From IMG/VR virus record IMGVR_UViG_2548876956_000006: a stretch of DNA of 36,639 bases; one strand, 5' to 3'. Position 1 is the first letter of the stretch; each line of letters starts with the position of its first letter. Shown here one piece after another: positions 4,995 through 27,939 of the stretch. The translations under genes were made by a program, and so were the position numbers. The notes below the pieces were generated by a model, which made no database searches, had not been told where the DNA came from, and saw only the letters and a list, made by a program, of their open reading frames with translations. Source of the DNA: a virus (taxonomy: Duplodnaviria; Heunggongvirae; Uroviricota; Caudoviricetes).

Positions 4995-5005
4995 AGGGCG
5001 TTGCG

Positions 5006-5248
5006 ATGGGCAAAGAATATAAAACTCTCATAAACAAAGCACTTGAGCGTTTTTATTTTCGCTTAAGTGCATCAGGTACTCATGCTGAACGTGCAGCCCG
5101 TGACTCATTGACCAGGGCAATCCGGAGTCTGTATGACGTGGCTTTTTACGCTGATGATCTGGATGCACTTAACGAACTTTCCGAGCTGATCTGTGCCGCA
5201 GAATGCGGGGAGCATATTGAACCGTATAAGCTGGGGAATATTGCATGA
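5006..5248 (+). CDS. Early-region hypothetical protein
   Basis: ORF in the early operon; no family recognised. Confidence 0.45.
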   Translation: MGKEYKTLINKALERFYFRLSASGTHAERAARDSLTRAIRSLYDVAFYADDLDALNELSELICAAECGEHIEPYKLGNIA

Positions 5249-11088: not shown

Positions 11089-11619
11089 TTATTCAGCATC
11101 GTCTCGTGCAGTCTGTGCATACGTCACAACAACGCCCAATGCATTAGTTTTCTTTTCAACATAGATAATATTGTCATATTCATAGTTACCATACGGATAG
11201 CAAATAAGAATATTTTTATGCAGATCGGGATCATCAACAAACGCTCCGGAACAGCTTCTTGAACTACCGGATGTATACTCATACGGTGCAACATATGATG
11301 ATGTTACTCCTGGTAAAAAATAAGTCACCATCATAAGAGGGATAATCAGGAATATCCCTGTAAGAATGCAAGAGCCAGCATAAACCTTCAGGTATTCCGA
11401 CAGTCCTTTCCAGCCACTTTGCTTCACTACCCCCCTCTTCACCAGAAACAAGGAGAAGAAAAAGGACATACCCATACTACACAAGATGTAATAATTGGAT
11501 ATACGCGAATTAAGATATGTAATCCTGTAGATATCTGCCCTCCACCAGTAAAAGAGGAAAATAATCCCTAGCACTGAAACAGTCATGCAAATCAAATAAG
11601 GATATGAATCTTTCTTCAT
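11089..11619 (-). CDS. Multi-pass membrane protein, AT-rich cargo in the A-cos (P2 tin/old-position) hotspot
   Basis: 176 aa, low-GC, opposite strand to the flanking operon; about three hydrophobic helices (VSVLGIIFLFYWW, FFFSLFLV, CILTGIFLIIPLMMVTYFL) followed by a soluble C-terminal segment. Confidence 0.55.
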   Translation of the reverse strand: MKKDSYPYLICMTVSVLGIIFLFYWWRADIYRITYLNSRISNYYILCSMGMSFFFSLFLVKRGVVKQSGWKGLSEYLKVYAGSCILTGIFLIIPLMMVTYFLPGVTSSYVAPYEYTSGSSRSCSGAFVDDPDLHKNILICYPYGNYEYDNIIYVEKKTNALGVVVTYAQTARDDAE

Positions 11620-12150
11620 GTCTTGCGCTCATTAAAATTTCACTGCTACGAACAAATTTACCATCCGTTTTTTGCGCAGAAAACAGCACGATGCACACTG
11701 CACGATAGTGCACAAATTTGCACAATTTTTTTGAACGACTTTTTACCCTTCCGGCCCGCATGGCGGCTGGATCCGTCAAGGATCCGTGCGTGCACAAAAA
11801 AACGCGTTTTTTCTGCGCGCAGGTGACGGGGGAACAGCCCGCGTTTCAGGGGGTAAATAGCATTCCCTGAACGATGTCGCAGAGACACAACAGAATGGCT
11901 GTATTTCTCACGCTGAGCGTGAAAAATACGTGAGGGATTCTGATTTGATGGGGTGAAAGGTAAGGCCGTCAAAATCGCACTGAGGCGGCGAAGAACATGC
12001 AGTCAACGCGGTGGGATTGCGTAAGAGTCTGACCGCCGATGATGGCAATAAGCAGAAAAGCGTCGTGAAATTATCTGATTGATACAGGAGCTGGAGAGCC
12101 GGGGCATAAATTTTTTATGCCCCGCCGAAGCAGCAGACAAGCGAAGCGCG

Positions 12151-13197
12151 TCAGGATGTGGGCTGGGTATCTAACAGTGCGTAAGGGTTAAAGCGGATCA
12201 CCTCTTCGCCAAGCCAGTCATTGATGTGCTTCATGGCCTCCATGACGGGCATCAGCTCGTTAATTGCGTAAACCCGCGCGGCCTTCTCCACATCACCAAA
12301 CGCACTTTTTTCACCCGGCATCGCCCCCATCAGTTGCGGCGGAACGCGGTGCGCAGCCAGCACATCATCACGGGATGCCGCCTTAACATTCATGAACTCA
12401 TCCTTTGCGGTGATCTGCTGGAACGGCAAAATTTGCACCCCCTCTTTGCCCCCGTTGGGCGCATGAATGAGCACGTTTTTAAACGCACCGCCACCACGTG
12501 CACCCTGTAGCGTTTCTTTCAGGGAGTCCATGCTTTCGCGGTTTACCTGCGCTGCACCGATGTAGATGATGCACCCGGCGTGGGATCCGTTGTCGTAATA
12601 CAGTTTTCTGAACATGTCCGCCGAATGAGACAGGCTGGCCGAGAGTAATGCGCCGAGATATTCCGGCATGCCGTAGATTTCCTGGTTAATGTCAGGATTC
12701 ATCAGGTGGCACACTTTGCCAGGGCGAAACTGGAACGCATCCTTGCCATCCTGCACATACCACCATGATTCAAGATCGCTACCGCGTCGCATGTATTTCG
12801 CCAGGGCGTGCCGTAATTTAAGCGGTTCGCCGAGCATATTGCTTCGAAGCTCAAGGAATGCGTTACCGAACACAAACCAGTCCAGCGCCAGCGCCGAGAA
12901 ATCCTGCCGGGAAAGCAGCGGGTGCGGGATGTAGCAACCGAGTAATACATTGCGCTTAAAGTAAAGCGCAGACTGATGCCAGGACGTTTGCCGGGCAGCT
13001 CTTGCCAGACCGTACCAGTCCACCGGGGTTTCATACCACCGCCCGTTATCAGCACAGTACATATTGTCCAGCAAGTCATGCCCGGTCAGGCGATAAGGAC
13101 CATCAAATGTGAATGCACTGAGCGACGATTCTTTCCTGAGCGCATCAGCGAGATCAATGCGTGAACTCATGCGCACTTTTTTATTTTTTCTGCTCAT
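12151..13197 (-). CDS. Q: Portal (capsid portal vertex) protein, P2 gpQ-like
   Basis: 348 aa in the conserved Q-P leftward pair; length and position match P2 Q; shares one base with the P start/stop. Confidence 0.85.
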   Translation of the reverse strand: MSRKNKKVRMSSRIDLADALRKESSLSAFTFDGPYRLTGHDLLDNMYCADNGRWYETPVDWYGLARAARQTSWHQSALYFKRNVLLGCYIPHPLLSRQDFSALALDWFVFGNAFLELRSNMLGEPLKLRHALAKYMRRGSDLESWWYVQDGKDAFQFRPGKVCHLMNPDINQEIYGMPEYLGALLSASLSHSADMFRKLYYDNGSHAGCIIYIGAAQVNRESMDSLKETLQGARGGGAFKNVLIHAPNGGKEGVQILPFQQITAKDEFMNVKAASRDDVLAAHRVPPQLMGAMPGEKSAFGDVEKAARVYAINELMPVMEAMKHINDWLGEEVIRFNPYALLDTQPTS

Positions 13198-14948
13198 CAG
13201 AACTCCATAACCGTGAAACGCTCGTTTTCTCCTTCGCCGCCAATCGGTTCGTTAATGACAGCAAGCATGGTTGCCCACGCAAGGTCGCCGTGGCTGATCC
13301 CCCTCGCGCGGTCCGTTTCGTAAGTGATAAAGCCGCCCGGTGTTTTCACCTTACGCACGGCGTTAAAGGCCGCGACCAGCTCGCGTTCGGCGCGATCGTA
13401 TTCCCACCGCCCGGCACGCATTATTTGCAGCATTTTCAGTACCAGCGACCGTTTTGATGACAGCGTGAAGGTGTACGGAATAGCAGCAGGGAAAAACCGT
13501 TTCACTATCTGATAAACAGCCTCCCCGTTCCCGCCCGTCACATCAATGCCGATGTGTTCCACGTTGTAGCGACACGTGAACTCTTCAATGACTCTGGCCT
13601 GTTCTTCAAACTCCAGCCCCTGAACGCGTCGCGTCTCCACCGTTCGAAAACGGCCACCAGGAACAGCCGGAGGAACCACCACGGACACAGCGCCGCTGTC
13701 GCCGTTGCCACTGCTGCCGTTTGCGTCATACCCAATCCATACCAGACGATTCCCCATCGGGCGGGGAGCAAAAGGTTTCCAGTCTTTCCAGTCGTCGTAT
13801 CCGTCAACGCCACAGCCAATCAGGATATTCAGGTTAAATGCCGATTCCCCTTCGCGGACAAACTCACACATATAGAGATTGAGGAACTCGTCTTCGGTGT
13901 TTTCATCACGAATTTCATCAATATCGGTGTGTTTCCAGCCGTGATTAACCACATCTTCCAGCGTGACAATTTGCCGCCACGTCCGGTCAGGGCAGATAAG
14001 CCCGTTATGCAGCGTTTTCCAGTCCACAGAAAAACGCTGGCGTTTATGCGAGGCCTTTTTCTCGTTCCAGCGGTCGCCGTTCCAGTAGGCGTATGCCTCG
14101 TGCGTTTCGGTGGATGGCGTGGAGAAGTAGGTGCGCCGCAGTCCGCTGAGGGTTGCCATAGCGCCAGCCACCTTGCGCAGTTCAGCAAAGCGACTGACCC
14201 AGAAAAATTCATCAAAATAAAAATTGCCCGTATAGGACTGTGCCGACGCAGCAGAAGTGCCGAGAAAATGCAGCTCTGCGCCGTTGGAGAGGATGATTTT
14301 ATCGCCCCCTTTCAGCTCCACATCAACTTCAGCCGCGGCCTTCTGAATAATGCTTTTAAACTGGAACGCCTGACGACGCGACGCAGACAAAAAAATCTGG
14401 TTACGCTGGTAAGGTTGCGCCACATCGTCACGCAGCGCCATCAGCAGTGCTTCCTGTGCAAAATACCAGGTCGCCCCAATCTGTCGGGATTTCAGGATCA
14501 TCCTGTTACGTATCCCGGCTTCCCTGCAAAGGGTCAGGGAGTCAAACCAGCTTCGCTGATGCCACTCCAGCCTGCTGATGATTTTTTCCCGCAGTGCGGC
14601 AATCTGTTCCGGCGTGAAATGATTTTTGAGTTTTTTCGCCCGGCCTTTCTTTCCTGCGGCCATCACATCCGGCTGGCCATCATGCAGCTTTTTAAGCTGC
14701 CGTGTCAGCAGGTCTATTTCCTTAAAGTCACCGCCTGTTTTATTCTGTTTTTCAGTAAGCTGGATGAGGCGCGCATCGATGGACTGCGTGACACGCTGCA
14801 CGGGTGGCGTTTCATCCCACTGGTCGCGTTTTTTCCACGCATAAATCGTGTTCGGGTTTATTCCCATCAGACGTGATATTTCTGCGGGCGGATAACCCTG
14901 CCAGTAAAGTTGCCGCGCACGCTGGCGCACAAAAGCGTCCTGAATCAT
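13197..14948 (-). CDS. P: Terminase large (ATPase) subunit, P2 gpP-like
   Basis: 583 aa, divergent from the capsid operon; conserved P2 synteny. Confidence 0.85.
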   Translation of the reverse strand: MIQDAFVRQRARQLYWQGYPPAEISRLMGINPNTIYAWKKRDQWDETPPVQRVTQSIDARLIQLTEKQNKTGGDFKEIDLLTRQLKKLHDGQPDVMAAGKKGRAKKLKNHFTPEQIAALREKIISRLEWHQRSWFDSLTLCREAGIRNRMILKSRQIGATWYFAQEALLMALRDDVAQPYQRNQIFLSASRRQAFQFKSIIQKAAAEVDVELKGGDKIILSNGAELHFLGTSAASAQSYTGNFYFDEFFWVSRFAELRKVAGAMATLSGLRRTYFSTPSTETHEAYAYWNGDRWNEKKASHKRQRFSVDWKTLHNGLICPDRTWRQIVTLEDVVNHGWKHTDIDEIRDENTEDEFLNLYMCEFVREGESAFNLNILIGCGVDGYDDWKDWKPFAPRPMGNRLVWIGYDANGSSGNGDSGAVSVVVPPAVPGGRFRTVETRRVQGLEFEEQARVIEEFTCRYNVEHIGIDVTGGNGEAVYQIVKRFFPAAIPYTFTLSSKRSLVLKMLQIMRAGRWEYDRAERELVAAFNAVRKVKTPGGFITYETDRARGISHGDLAWATMLAVINEPIGGEGENERFTVMEF

Positions 14949-15102
14949 TGCTCCCCCTGAGTAATTACAGGAAGATTACCCGCGCGCGAAACCGTTCTCC
15001 TTAACCCCCTGTTCTGGCCGTTTTCTTACAACAAAAGCCCTTTGTATCAGCCTGTTACGCTTTGCCATCATGACTGAAGAACCAGTCAGAGGGGCAAAAA
15101 CT

Positions 15103-22834: not shown

Positions 22835-23357
22835 TTCACTGTTACCGCCATCAGCCAGCAATTTCATGCGTTGTGCCGAAGCTGTCGGAACGCGCATTAC
22901 AGACATTCCGGTAGACCTCAACACGCTGTGGTCGCCGGACACCTGCCCGGTGCATCTGCTGCCTTATCTCGCCTGGGCATTTTCCGTTGACCGCTGGGAT
23001 CGCAACTGGCCGGAAGAGACAAAGCGACAGGTGATTCGTGATGCATGGCTGATACACCGACACAAAGGGACCATCAGCGCACTGCGCCGGGCCATTGAGC
23101 CGCTGGGATACCTCATTCGTGTGTCTGAGTGGTGGGAGTTCGGCGGAGAACCGGGAACATTTACCGTTGAAGTCGGCACGCTGGACAGTGGCGTGACGGA
23201 GGAAATGTATCTGGAAATGGAGCGGTTGATTGCTGATGCCCGCCCGGTCAGCCGCCACATGACAGGGCTGAATATCATTCAGGAGATCCCGGGGGATATT
23301 TTCACGGCGGCAGCAACTTACGACGGTGAAGTCATTACCATTTATCCGGACGATTAA
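22827..23357 (+). CDS. I: Baseplate/tail protein, P2 gpI-like
   Basis: 176 aa from the ATG at 22827 (SD gaaggtggg), overlapping the J stop. Confidence 0.8.
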
Positions 23358-23359
23358 GC

Positions 23360-25186
23360 ATGAGTACCACAACACGAAAATTTAAAACCATTATCACTGA
23401 TACTGGTGCCAAAAAATTAGCTCAGGCAGCCGCGCCAGATGGTAATCCTGTCCGCCTGACTCACATGGCCGTGGGCGACGGTGGCGGCACGTTGCCCACA
23501 CCAGACAGTAAGCAGACCCGTCTGGTGCATGAGGTGTGGCGACATACTGTTAATCGCGTCATCCTGGACGCAACACATCAGAACCGCATTATTGCGGAGC
23601 TGGTTATTCCTCCTGAAACGGGCGGATTCTGGATCCGGGAAATTGGTGTATTTGATGAGCACGGCGATTTGATCGCGGTGGGCAATACTGCGGAAAGTTA
23701 CAAGCCAGCCGTTGCCGAAGGATCCGGACGTGCACAAACATTTCGCACCATTCTGACCGTATCCAGCACTGCCACCGTGGCGCTTACCGTGGATAACACC
23801 ATGGTTATGGCCACAGTGGATTACGTGAATGACAAACTGAAAGAACATGAACAGTCACGACGTCACCCGGACGCCTCGCTGACCGCAAAAGGCTTTGTTC
23901 AACTCAGTAGCGCCACCAACAGCACGTCTGAAGCACTGGCCGCAACGCCGAAAGCGGTCAAGGCAGCCTATGACCTTGCTAACGGGAAATATACCGCACA
24001 GGACGCCACTACAGCGCGGAAAGAACTTGTCCAGCTCAGTAGCGCCACCAACAGCGATTCAGAAACGCTGGCGGCAACACCAAAGGCGGTAAAGGCAGCC
24101 TATGACCTTGCTAACGGGAAATATACCGCACAGGACGCCACGACGGCACGAAAAGGAATAGTCCAGCTCAGTAGCGTCACTAACAGTGATTCTGAAACGC
24201 TTGCCGCGACTCCGAAAGCGGTGAAAGCCGCTAATGACAATGCAAACGGGCGTGTGCCCTCTGGACGTAAGGTTAATGGCAAATCACTAGCCAATGATGT
24301 CAATGTTACATCGCAGGATATTTTTAACGGCCAGAGTATTGAGATTGGTGCAAATCAGAATCTGGATAATTACAAAACACCGGGGCTGTACCATCAGCCA
24401 TTGAATGCCAATACAAGCGCAGCGCTGAAATACCCGGAGAATTTTGCGGGTACACTGGTTGTGCTTAAAAATGCCGGGATAACACAGATTTACTATGTGT
24501 ATGACACATCCAGAAGCTATACCCGCAGCCAGTACTCAACGGGTGACTGGACACCATGGACGCCACAAGATTCATTTCCGGTAGGTGCGGCGATACCGTG
24601 GCCTTCTGATTCAGTGCCTACAGGCTACACCGTTATGCAGGGGCAGACTTTTGATAAAACAGTCTACCCCCTGCTTGCAGTCGCTTATCCGTCTGGTGTG
24701 ATCCCTGATATGCGTGGCTGGACGATTAAGGGCAAACCCGCCAGTGGTCGGGCCGTATTATCTCAGGAACAGGACGGCATTAAATCACACTCCCACAGTG
24801 CCAGCGCGTCCAGTACGGACTTGGGGACAAAAACCACATCATCATTTGACTACGGCACCAAGACGTCCAGTTCATTTAACCATGGCACTAAAACCACGAA
24901 TAGCGCCGGGGATCATTCACACAATATTCCTGTTGGCAACACTGGCGCTGGTAATGGTGTTTCGGCTGGTTATAACTCAGGGCTTGGCACTGGAAAAACA
25001 AGTAACGCAGGGGGGCACTCTCACACAGTAAATATTGGCGCACACACTCATACGGTAGGAATTGGCGCACACACACACTCCGTTGCGATAGGTTCACACG
25101 GGCATACCATCACCGTTAACGCTACGGGTAACGCAGAAAACACCGTAAAAAACATCGCATTTAACTATATTGTGAGGCTTGCATGA
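23360..25186 (+). CDS. H: Tail fibre protein, P2 gpH-like, with phage-fibre tandem repeats and a Gly/His-rich C-terminal tip
   Basis: 608 aa; three tandem ~44-aa repeats ([40 protein letters not shown]); C-terminal GxHxH repeats ([25 protein letters not shown]). Confidence 0.9.
23894..24245 (+). repeat. Three tandem ~132-bp in-frame repeats inside the tail-fibre gene
   Basis: Near-identical units starting near 23894, 24026 and 24158; coding (phage fibre repeat), not CRISPR. Confidence 0.7.
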
Positions 25187-26085
25187 TTACGCTCATTCTT
25201 TCTGCACCAGTAACAGAAATGGCTGAAGCATTTAAGCAGGTATTTGCAAATGCAGATAGTGTGAATATTGTCGGAAAGCCATTTGAAACAATCAGAGAAT
25301 TTGACTGCATGGTAAGTGCGGCAAATAGTTTCGGCTTGATGGATGGTGGCGTTGATGCCGCCATTACCGCATTCTTCGGTACTCAGTTACAGTTCCGCGT
25401 TCAGAATCATATTCTTCGTGAATATCTCGGCGAACAGCCTGTAGGTTCTGCATTTGTCATTGAAACGGGGCATAATCATCACCCCTGGCTGGTACATGCG
25501 CCAACAATGCGTGTTCCGTTGACAATTGACGGAACAGACGCTGTATATAACGCAACCTGGGCCGCTCTGCTTGCCATCTTTCAACACAATAAAAACGCAA
25601 CGACAGACATGAAAATAAAAACAGTGGTATTCCCTGCAATGGGGGCCGGATGTGGTCAGGTGCCGTTTGAAAGTGTTGCCCGACAGATGAAGCAGGCATG
25701 GGATAACTTTAATAAAAAAACAGAATCAATTAACTGGGAATACGCACAATCTCGCCAGTCGGCAGTATTTGGCACATATGCATACTGTCCGGGTAATTCC
25801 GTTTGCCGTTATGCGGATACTAAATATATTGGATGTGGCGATTATCGGACGTGTTGCTCTCGTTCCGGGCAAGTCTGTATTAACCCTGAACATCAGGCTG
25901 ATGATGTACTGATACAACATCAGGCTAATAACCGTTTTCGCCCTGGTTCGCATATACACCGGATTAATCCAGAAAATCCCGTAGGTAATGTCACCTCTGG
26001 CGCACATAGCCACGGAAGTAGCATCGTTATTGGTACTCCCACCCATACGCTCAATAAACAATATTCTGTCTCTGATATTAAGTAG
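25183..26085 (+). CDS. Macro-domain (ADP-ribose-binding/hydrolase-like) protein with a Cys/His-rich fibre-tip-like C-terminal region
   Basis: ATG overlaps the H stop (ATGA). [32 protein letters not shown]...WLVHAPTM and [19 protein letters not shown] match the three hallmark macro-domain segments (compare E. coli YmdB). The C-terminal ~120 aa carry GSHIH and GAHSHG motifs like the H tip. Confidence 0.75.
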
Positions 26086-26093
26086 AGGTGAAC

Positions 26094-26672
26094 ATGGATT
26101 TCAGAATGAGTGAACAATCACGGACCATAAAAATTTATAACCTGCTGGCCGGAACTAATGAATTTATTGGGGAAGGTGATGCATACATTCCACCTCATAC
26201 AGGTCTGCCTGCAAACAGTACCGATATTGCACCACCAGATATTCCGGCAGGCTTCGTGGCTGTTTTCAACAGTGATGAGGCATCGTGGCATCTCGTTGAA
26301 GACCATCGGGGTAAAACGGTTTATGACGTGGCATCAGGGGACGCGTTATTTATTTCTGAACTCGGTCCGTTACCGGAAAATGTTACCTGGTTGTCGCCGG
26401 ATGGAGAGTGTCAGAAGTGGAACGGCACATCCTGGGTGAAAGATGCAGTAGCAGAAAAACTGTTTCGGGTACGGGAGGCAGAAGAAACAAAAAACAGCCT
26501 GATGCAGGTAGCCAGTGAGCATATTGCGCCACTTCAGGATGCCGTAGATTTGGATATTGCGACGGAGGAAGAGGCATCGTTACTGGCTGCATGGAAGACA
26601 TATAGGGTATTGTTGAATCGTGTTGATACAACAGTAGCAGCGGATGTTGAGTGGCCAGTCGCCCCACAATAA
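26094..26672 (+). CDS. G: Tail fibre assembly protein, P2 gpG/Tfa-like
   Basis: Conserved position after the fibre gene; SD gaggtg is 5 nt before the ATG at 26094. Confidence 0.75.
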
Positions 26673-26710
26673 AAAGAAAAAGCCATCGACAGAAATATCG
26701 ATGGCTTTAT
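26670..26710. terminator. Bidirectional hairpin terminator between G (+) and the acetyltransferase (-)
   Basis: Hairpin agccatcga-cagaaata-tcgatggct with an A-run on one side, giving a U-tract for the minus-strand transcript. Confidence 0.5.
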
Positions 26711-26715
26711 GTACT

Positions 26716-27288
26716 CTATTTATACAATACAACACCACTCTTTTTAGTTATATATGTGCAGTTTGATGGTATATCTTTATTTATAAAAGACATTGCACCT
26801 ATTTTTACATTATCCCCAATTTTACGTGATAATCCAATGATGCAACAATTAGCTCCGATATCAACGTTACTACCAATTTTCACTCTTGAACCAGGCATGT
26901 CACCATCTATCTGTCCAATGGTAGTATTCTGTCGTAATACCAGATTTTCACCCGCATCAACAGCAAAATGAACAACAATTCCAGCATGATGGGGAATTGT
27001 TAACCCTTTTCCAATATTTGCTCCCAATCCTATTTCACAACCAAATTTGTTAATTATTTTACTGTTTAACTTTTTGGCTGCTTTCTTATGTGATTTATTA
27101 CCATTAATATACATTTCGTTAGCCAACCGCCACCAGAACAGGAAATTCCGGTTACGCTGCTTTTTCTCTCTTAAAAGCCTCCAGATATCCATACGTTTCC
27201 GCCGAATCACTTCATGTTTCCAGAAGTTTTTTAAATTAGTAGAGTTCCCAAATAAAACAAAGTGAATTGCCATTAAGTAAGACAGCAC
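26716..27288 (-). CDS. Hexapeptide-repeat acetyltransferase (serine acetyltransferase/WcaB-like, left-handed beta-helix); cargo in the P2 Z/fun position
   Basis: Repeated [LIV]G-x4 hexads (IGLGAN, IGKGLT, IGSNVD, IGANCC, IGLSRK, IGDNVK) and the LTIPHHAGIVVHFAVDAGENLVLRQNTTIG core; AT-rich; probable GTG start after SD AAGGAG (the ORF track extends to 27321). Confidence 0.7.
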   Translation of the reverse strand: MLSYLMAIHFVLFGNSTNLKNFWKHEVIRRKRMDIWRLLREKKQRNRNFLFWWRLANEMYINGNKSHKKAAKKLNSKIINKFGCEIGLGANIGKGLTIPHHAGIVVHFAVDAGENLVLRQNTTIGQIDGDMPGSRVKIGSNVDIGANCCIIGLSRKIGDNVKIGAMSFINKDIPSNCTYITKKSGVVLYK

Positions 27289-27444
27289 GAAAATCTCCTT
27301 AATTATTATTTCAGACCACACATGTTATAAGGTTGAGAGATTATAAAATCCTGTTATTTGTTATTCAAAAACAATTTTCTGAGAAGGACATACAGCAGCA
27401 AGTCGCCAGTCACCTTCATCAGGAAATTGGCGACATACGTTAAA

Positions 27445-27939
27445 TCAGAGCAGCCCCTTAACTGAGCTGGCCGCGCTGTTAAGGGATGATGTCACCTTAT
27501 CTTTGAAGCCGGACAACATATCGCTGAACGATGAGGATTGCAGGCGCTCCCGCAAATCCTCATCACAGCGTTCAAGAGTCAGTGAAAATTCTATCTTTTT
27601 CGCCTTACCGTAGCGATCAAACTCGGAGCGGGTCGTATTCGTTTCAGTCAGTACATACATGCCGTAAATCTGCCCGACGCCATCAATCAGAGGCCAGGGG
27701 CGTCCTGTATATGCCTGCGTGGTCAACAACGACAGCGACACTTCGCCACCTGTAATCTCAGGATAAAGAACACCCGAAAGAACGATGCGATCATCACCTG
27801 CACCGATATACTGCCAGCTTGCCGAACGGTTAACGCGTTCATTTTTCACATGTCGCCAGCTTTTGTTTTGCTGTAACTGCTGATGCGGCAACGTGCGCAA
27901 CTCAAAAACAAACATGCCGTAGATCATCATCATGGCCAT
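27445..27939 (-). CDS. U: Tail protein, P2 gpU-like
   Basis: 164 aa; LRTLPHQQLQQNKSWR...VLYPEITGG pattern resembles P2 U as recalled. Confidence 0.8.
   Translation of the reverse strand: MAMMMIYGMFVFELRTLPHQQLQQNKSWRHVKNERVNRSASWQYIGAGDDRIVLSGVLYPEITGGEVSLSLLTTQAYTGRPWPLIDGVGQIYGMYVLTETNTTRSEFDRYGKAKKIEFSLTLERCDEDLRERLQSSSFSDMLSGFKDKVTSSLNSAASSVKGLL

Follow-up and report, generated by a model that had tools for sequence, protein, structure and literature searches.

A macro-domain gene with a fibre-type histidine tail at the fibre/chaperone junction of a P2-family prophage

Between the tail-fibre gene H and the tail-fibre assembly chaperone gene G (Tfa) of an E. coli prophage of the P2 family (Peduoviridae) lies a gene that encodes a 300-residue macro-domain protein. 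The prophage makes up the 36,639-nucleotide stretch of DNA analysed here (IMG/VR record IMGVR_UViG_2548876956_000006), to which we refer as the window. The protein is distinguished by a cysteine- and histidine-rich tail of the fibre type and by its fixed, coupled position in a mobile cassette that carries the fibre tip and its chaperone. It is not a tail fibre, not a classical moron and not a member of the DarG/AdfM group of macro domains. The family itself is already present in databases, as PHROG 2613 ('unknown function'), as Gifsy-1 STM2588.1n and under names assigned by the Prokaryotic Genome Annotation Pipeline (PGAP). Full-text literature searches found no functional study of the fibre-locus macro family.

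Macro domain and C-terminal tail

The N-terminal part of the protein was predicted to be a macro domain, as had been claimed in an earlier interpretation of the window made from its letters alone (the sequence-only reading). Pfam PF01661 (Macro) matched residues 44-169 with E=3.8e-18, at 66 bits against a cut-off of 22. An AlphaFold2 (AF2) model, computed with 89 homologues in the alignment, gave residues 1-195 a three-layer alpha/beta/alpha macro fold with a predicted local distance difference test score (pLDDT) above 90. When the model was compared with the PDB using Foldseek, the top match was 1njr, the yeast protein Ymx7/YMR087W (E=4e-11); 193 PDB entries matched at E<=0.001, and the best 50 of these 193 were all macro domains or designs based on one. 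Viral macro proteins matched the predicted fold as well. In a profile hmmsearch 1njr was again the top match (E=4.5e-17), with N48, D58 and H105 of the phage protein aligned to N80, D90 and H145 of Ymx7. Kumaran et al. are said to have proposed these three yeast residues as catalytic in 2005.

In the window protein the macro motifs read as an SAAN48...D58 loop, H105APTMRVP and a G154AGCG loop. N48, D58, H105 and both glycine-rich (phosphate-binding) loops are invariant among 14 relatives, and N48 and D58 are conserved at 90% or more among the 89 sequences. With dN/dS values of 0.07-0.20, the macro part is under strong purifying selection. Because 1njr tops both the sequence and the fold searches and the Asn, Asp and His residues align, we assign the domain to the Ymx7/YMR087W (MacroD-like) clade. 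The yeast ADP-ribose-1''-monophosphatase (PDB 1njr, 1txz, 1ty8) is the closest structural and sequence match, and the two proteins also share an N-terminal extension and an NS[FY]G..GG[VF]D loop.

Membership of the DarG/AdfM (TARG1-like) group was ruled out. No lysine was found among the invariant or near-invariant positions, and the PADLOC DarG profile matched only at E=0.0097 over 38 residues. Nor is the protein AdfM itself, as its homologue in PhiPA3 is gp271 whereas AdfM is gp108. AdfM (PhiKZ gp104, PhiPA3 gp108; T4 Tk.4) resembles the window protein in being a phage macro hydrolase encoded by an accessory gene with a plausible role in counter-defence (PMC13309987; bioRxiv 10.1101/2025.11.20.689424). 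However, AdfM is of the DarG2/TARG1-like type with a catalytic lysine (K80 in TaqDarG2, K78 in PhiKZ AdfM; PMC13309987), whereas the window protein is of the MacroD/Ymx7 type with Asn, Asp and His. AdfM also lacks a fibre-like tail and a place in a fibre operon, unlike the window protein, and the fold match between the window protein and T4-type tk.4 is weak (E=5.5e-5).

Searches with residues 1-195 returned more than 2,300 representative homologues, with about 50% identity to the cellular ones; for the protein itself there are 1712 homologues, large clusters among them. Most homologues of the macro part are stand-alone proteins of about 200 residues from Chloroflexota, cyanobacteria, Acidobacteriota, Bacteroidota and eukaryotes. 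In contrast to the phage protein, none of these cellular homologues carries a Cys4 module or an HxH tail or is linked to a phage or a fibre. The genes around them, inspected for a substrate clue, had nothing in common: the neighbours (a DAG kinase-like gene, GNAT, MCP, inositol monophosphatase and others) are unrelated to each other.

The C-terminal region consists of two parts. Residues 196-240 contain six cysteines, and C202, C208, C225, C232 and H237 are invariant among the 14 relatives; the AF2 model predicts a small beta module here (pLDDT ~64-76), and dN/dS is 0.12-0.5. When the C-terminal region was modelled by itself, this module alone attained moderate confidence. The remaining residues, 241-300, carry histidine repeats, GSHIH at 255-259 and GAHSHG at 273-278 in the window allele, where a third repeat has degenerated to GTPTHT (relatives have GAHTHT). 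The last seven codons of this allele (YSVSDIK, window 26062-26085) arise from a 1-nt indel relative to alleles of 289 residues, in which ...NKQ is followed by a TAA stop; apart from this, the alleles agree in the sequence downstream. In 48 distinct family tails we counted 93 HxH motifs against 30 +/- 4.8 in composition-preserving shuffles, an enrichment of about three-fold that was reached by none of 2000 shuffles. HxH units were retained in 46 of the 48 tails, mostly as G-x-H-x-H and in one to three copies each. The variant in Izhakiella has a different Cys-rich linker and keeps four HxH repeats. The repeats and the open frame persist across alleles that are just 60-65% identical.

The tail resembles the HxH repeat region of H (residues ~517-584). 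Profile alignment with hhalign matched it to H residues 551-584 with 93% probability (E=3.3e-7), and BLASTP gave a marginal match to H (E=0.012 over 36 residues). The Pfam Phage_fiber repeat was matched by five of 13 tails, only at E values of at least 1.5. The HxH tail is confined to members encoded in fibre loci; cellular and jumbo-phage homologues end at about 200 residues. Because the HxH motif is enriched, is kept despite the replaced linker in Izhakiella, is matched to H by hhalign and is restricted to fibre loci, we favour a functional tail over a relic.

The sequence-only reading had described the C-terminus as Cys/His-rich and echoing the end of H. The echo was borne out for GSHIH, GAHSHG and the HxH repeats, which match H; the Cys part matches no fibre. 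The likeness to H is thus limited to the HxH repeat motif, the Cys part being specific to the family. A copy of the H 3' end was rejected as the origin of the tail: beyond the marginal BLASTP match, tblastn and profile searches with the C-terminal region returned only family members or fragments and no fibre gene. The same profile search found no other enzyme bearing a Cys4+HxH adaptor. Searches against both macro and fibre profiles, which had been suggested earlier, yielded PF01661 for the macro part and no fibre family. Neither Pfam nor PHROGs detected a fibre shaft, collar or N-terminal attachment domain in the protein, and the PHROG labelled 'tail protein' matched the macro part alone.

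Fibre needles of the T4 gp37 type, lambda Stf and the tips of P2 H, which are served by Tfa/gp38-family chaperones, share repeated [IV]G[AS]HxH units with the macro tail. Like the macro gene, they are encoded directly upstream of the Tfa gene and evolve fast. The macro tail differs in its small number of repeats (1-4, within 30-60 residues), in lacking a collar, a shaft and an N-terminal attachment domain, and in being joined to an enzyme instead of a fibre shaft. Its trimerisation and metal binding are predicted only by analogy with these needles.

An optional cassette between fibre and chaperone genes

The macro gene is joined closely to its neighbours. As the sequence-only reading had noted, its ATG overlaps the H stop codon (as ATGA, with a GAGG 5 nt upstream), and it ends just before G: the stop codon TAG occupies 26083-26085 and the Tfa start follows 8 nt further on, with coupling signals towards G also seen. 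This Tfa ATG is the start used by PGAP in a 99.9% identical prophage. In positions 23000-27500 the count of promoter-like and terminator-like sites was no higher than in shuffled sequences, and none lay between H and the macro gene or between the macro gene and Tfa. The gene lacks the flanking promoter and terminator of its own that define a moron, and the starts overlap or abut the neighbouring genes. A hairpin downstream of Tfa is likely the end of the fibre operon. Because of these overlapping or abutting starts, the absence of separating promoter-like or terminator-like sites and the hairpin after Tfa, we infer that H, the macro gene and Tfa form one late operon with translational coupling.

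The macro gene lies in the -1 frame relative to H, and a slippery heptamer A_AAA_AAC (H frame GTA AAA AAC) is found at ~25146-25152, 30 nt 5' of the macro start; the heptamer is also present in cassettes without a macro gene. Production of an H-macro fusion by -1 frameshifting was ruled out by a TAA at 25162-25164 in the -1 frame, 18 nt before the ATG.

The gene was found in 128 of 5,426 complete E. coli genomes (~2.4%), at 109 chromosomal and 22 plasmid places. Among the E. coli matches listed it is intact and annotated as a coding sequence, under the PGAP name 'macro domain-containing protein'. The same trio of fibre, macro and Tfa genes occurs in the P2-like phages Chuche and SEN4/5, in lambdoid side-fibre loci of Gifsy-1 and a phage-plasmid, and in Erwinia and Izhakiella prophages. 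In each case a common fibre C-terminal end is followed by the macro gene with its ATGA overlap and then by Tfa, and the coupling signals at both gene ends are kept precisely in every locus examined. The lambdoid phage-plasmid and the window have in common a segment of 94% identity that consists of the final 150 nt of H, the macro gene and Tfa. In its spread over myoviruses, siphoviruses and phage-plasmids, the cassette is accompanied by the 3' end of the fibre gene and by Tfa.

Gifsy-1 STM2588.1n, SEN4/SEN5 gp19, Chuche CDS0053 and PHROG 2613 belong to the same family, with the same gene order and overlapping starts; the Gifsy-1, SEN4/SEN5 and Chuche members are 65-85% identical to the window protein, are 269-300 residues long and differ in HxH number. 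The sequence-only reading did not know the arrangement as a described one in P2-like phages. The gene is, however, annotated in Gifsy-1, SEN4/SEN5 and Chuche, and the arrangement is not confined to P2-like phages.

Many related loci lack the gene. Matches to both the fibre 3' end and Tfa were present in 4,733 E. coli records; we sampled 60 evenly spaced rows from these, and in 41 rows the two are directly adjacent with no macro gene between them; examples are stfR-tfaR of the K-12 Rac prophage, and Qin. A near-isogenic P2-like prophage without the macro gene is present in E. coli 88_1577; its flanks are 94-96.5% identical, and its H stop and Tfa start overlap as GCATAATG. By comparison, the insertion amounts to ~0.9 kb and supplies its own ribosome-binding site for Tfa. 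Judged from these alignments, the macro gene is an optional single-gene cassette at the exact fibre/chaperone junction, and since empty-site prophages exist it is dispensable for fibre and chaperone, which in most E. coli do without it.

Other variants of the locus were observed. Escherichia phage 500465-2, a relative with 96% identity in the backbone, carries a Mu/P1-style invertible fibre cassette at the same place (11424-14950), in which a fibre gene, Tfa, an inverted Tfa', an alternative fibre C-terminus and a DNA invertase replace the macro cassette and the acetyltransferase gene that follows it. Salmonella phage SEN34 contains an isolated fragment of the Cys module at 5001-5183 (59% identity to tail residues 13-73, no macro domain), beside an O-acetyltransferase gene and 3' of the fibre/Tfa genes; it is probably the remnant of a decayed cassette. 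Short Salmonella open reading frames of 72-166 codons, some found on ~100 contigs, are copies of the family that lack the N-terminus and start from a Met codon within the gene; in Salmonella prophages, therefore, the macro gene has repeatedly become a pseudogene. A 463-residue protein from a Logan assembly joins ParM/StbA-like domains for plasmid segregation to a macro protein of 99% identity; it is most probably a chimera that arose during assembly or gene calling at a phage-plasmid junction.

Proposed function and rival explanations

We tentatively propose a layered reading, a competent hydrolase that is tethered through its HxH tail and serves in late counter-defence, and we give it, as a whole, slightly less than an even chance. 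The macro-domain hydrolase encoded by the cassette, of the Ymx7/YMR087W (MacroD-like) type, would be catalytically competent and produced late together with H and Tfa via translational coupling. It would act on an ADP-ribose derivative by removing a group from its distal ribose, candidate substrates being ADP-ribose-1''-phosphate, O-acetyl-ADP-ribose and an ADP-ribosylated macromolecule or signal. Its tail could form a metal-stapled trimer, as in fibre needles, and/or be recognised by Tfa, so that the enzyme would be oligomerised or kept where fibres are assembled. The phage would thereby gain counter-defence against NAD+/ADP-ribose-based host immunity acting as late structural proteins accumulate. 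Among the known triggers of immunity are tail proteins (bioRxiv 10.64898/2026.06.04.730250; HepS summary in PMC13434031), and a phage macro domain has been described as counter-defence in the case of AdfM and DarTG2 (PMC13309987; bioRxiv 10.1101/2025.11.20.689424). AdfM is a precedent for the kind of role, not for the Ymx7-like clade.

Several points weigh against this proposal. No enzymatic, expression or proteomic data on any family member were found in the literature, and no target defence system was identified. In AF2 monomer models the tail (residues 241-300) is disordered, with pLDDT ~30-45, and its trimerisation would rest on an analogy with fibre needles. Tail dN/dS is 0.27-1.0; such fast evolution could reflect weak constraint, and truncated family copies are common in Salmonella. 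The catalytic lysine of the DarG/TARG1 type is absent, so that the best-documented phage macro mechanism is inapplicable, and late expression is an odd timing to counter a DNA-targeting DarT. Since the macro domain is not of the DarG/AdfM type, the idea of counter-defence against DarTG, raised in the sequence-only reading, is weakened.

Alternatively, the protein might be a virion-borne accessory in which an HxH trimer docks on the fibre and three macro domains per fibre act as a surface enzyme or lectin during adsorption. We regard this as unlikely, if credible. It would fit a fibre-type repeat tail that is restricted to fibre-locus members and evolves fast like receptor-binding tips, a macro gene coupled stoichiometrically to H and Tfa, and a cassette that is accompanied by the fibre 3' end and Tfa among several phage types. 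However, the protein shows the same conservation of the ADP-ribose pocket as do cytoplasmic cellular homologues of ~50% identity, no baseplate- or fibre-attachment domain was found with Pfam, PHROGs or tblastn, and the same fibre tip functions without the macro gene. We know of no ADP-ribose-like substrate on the enterobacterial surface, which also counts against display on the virion. The 'tail protein' labels found on relatives appear to be based on gene position, not experiment; those on jumbo-phage macro genes were discounted as apparent annotation transfer, and the SEN4/5 paper reports no virion proteomics. In the stricter form of a structural fibre passenger, a Tfa-chaperoned, metal-stapled HxH trimer that would display ADP-ribose-binding or ADP-ribose-hydrolysing domains outside the capsid, the idea seems a shade more doubtful still. 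MacroD-type enzymes remove protein-linked mono-ADP-ribose, and this would suit a protein that guards the fibre, tethered by its tail to nascent fibre-Tfa complexes and stripping host-placed ADP-ribose from fibre or chaperone proteins. Such a role would account for the co-occurrence of a fibre-like tail and fibre-coupled expression, and it has an analogy in defences that modify tail proteins post-translationally. Nevertheless, it is wholly inferential, no fibre-ADP-ribosylating defence was found in the literature searched and none is known to us, and we consider it improbable.

It is also conceivable that the gene is a hitchhiker of diffuse or no benefit at the stf/tfa recombination hotspot, with the HxH tail as a leftover of a captured fibre 3' end. 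The gene is optional and rare (2.4% of E. coli genomes), empty sites and truncated copies occur, tail dN/dS is relaxed (up to ~1), and in the window allele the third HxH is degenerate and the last seven codons derive from an indel. These observations have to be set against HxH repeats and a reading frame that survive divergence to 60-65% identity and a replaced linker, Cys4 residues that are invariant, strong purifying selection on the macro part, and precise coupling signals at both ends in every locus examined; we judge mere hitchhiking to be quite unlikely. That the open reading frame is non-functional, whether as a decayed copy of the H 3' end or as an artefact of annotation, is effectively refuted: the only mark of this would be the weak HxH similarity to H, and it is opposed by a confidently predicted macro fold with conserved pocket residues, a dN/dS of ~0.1, the 1712 homologues with their large clusters, and a C-terminal region that matches no fibre. 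The findings that the sequence-only reading had named as fatal to its own proposal, loss of the fold or of the pocket residues and degeneracy of the frame, were therefore not encountered.

Neighbouring features and wider meaning

The features of the locus are collected in Table 1. Over bases 12000-36639 the window shares 94% identity with Escherichia phage Chuche and ~96% with Gemsvirus-type phages across 76-88% of their length.

Table 1. Features of the fibre locus, in window coordinates
Feature	Position	Strand	Basis
Tail-fibre gene H, 608 aa	23360..25186	+	ORF list, Pfam, PHROGs
HxH repeat region of H, residues ~517-584, starting GDHSHNI	24908..25111	+	BLASTP, hhalign
GAGG Shine-Dalgarno-like site within the last H codons, 5 nt 5' of the macro ATG	25174..25177	+	Sequence reading
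Macro-domain protein gene, 300 aa	25183..26085	+	ORF list, sequence, Pfam
Predicted macro domain, residues 1-195, Ymx7/YMR087W-like clade	25183..25767	+	Pfam, AF2, Foldseek, hmmsearch
Insertion relative to empty-site prophages (approximate extent)	25185..26095	+	Prophage comparison
Cys-rich mini-domain, residues 196-240	25768..25902	+	Alignment of relatives, AF2
His-repeat tail, residues 241-300 (GSHIH, GAHSHG, degenerate GTPTHT)	25903..26082	+	Alignment, hhalign, dN/dS
GAGG Shine-Dalgarno-like site for Tfa, overlapping the macro stop codon	26085..26088	+	Sequence reading
Tail-fibre assembly chaperone gene G/Tfa (Caudo_TAP), ATG at 26094	26094..26672	+	ORF list, Pfam, PHROGs
Hairpin, 13-bp stem with T runs, between Tfa and the convergent acetyltransferase gene	26679..26708		Sequence scan

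Upstream of the macro gene, H has an N-terminal tail-collar fibre domain, three Phage_fiber_2 repeats, a Collar domain and a C-terminal HxH needle. The three Phage_fiber_2 copies, of ~44 residues each, are in tandem (window 23870-24250), and their number differs among near-identical prophages; a 99%-identical prophage has one extra copy and an H of 652 instead of 608 residues.

Convergent to Tfa lies a gene for a 201-residue, hexapeptide-repeat protein resembling serine acetyltransferases (26716-27321, minus strand). It matches NCBIfam EpsC (8e-21), CysE (8e-17) and WcaB (1.6e-14) and PHROG 2154 (unknown function), and has a promoter-like site of its own at 27368-27340 (10 of 12 matches). Its position corresponds to the Z/fun accessory-gene hotspot of P2. 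The macro-less isogenic prophage of 88_1577 has this gene too, which is therefore independent of the macro gene.

Counter-defence enzymes with macro domains are a recent finding in phages and have so far been only DarG-like, whereas the window protein represents a different macro clade. Here, a Ymx7-like domain appears to have acquired a fibre-type tail and a fixed, coupled place in the most mobile module of phages, the fibre tip with its chaperone. Since the family is present in model systems, as in Gifsy-1 of Salmonella LT2, and natural isogenic plus/minus prophages exist, its function can be tested quickly. If counter-defence proved true, the arms race over ADP-ribose would gain a new pair of enzyme and substrate; alternatively, fibre cassettes would be seen to carry enzymatic cargo. 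Display on the virion, if true, would make the protein the first macro domain at work at the phage-host surface interface and would establish enzymes or lectins borne on fibres as a new class.

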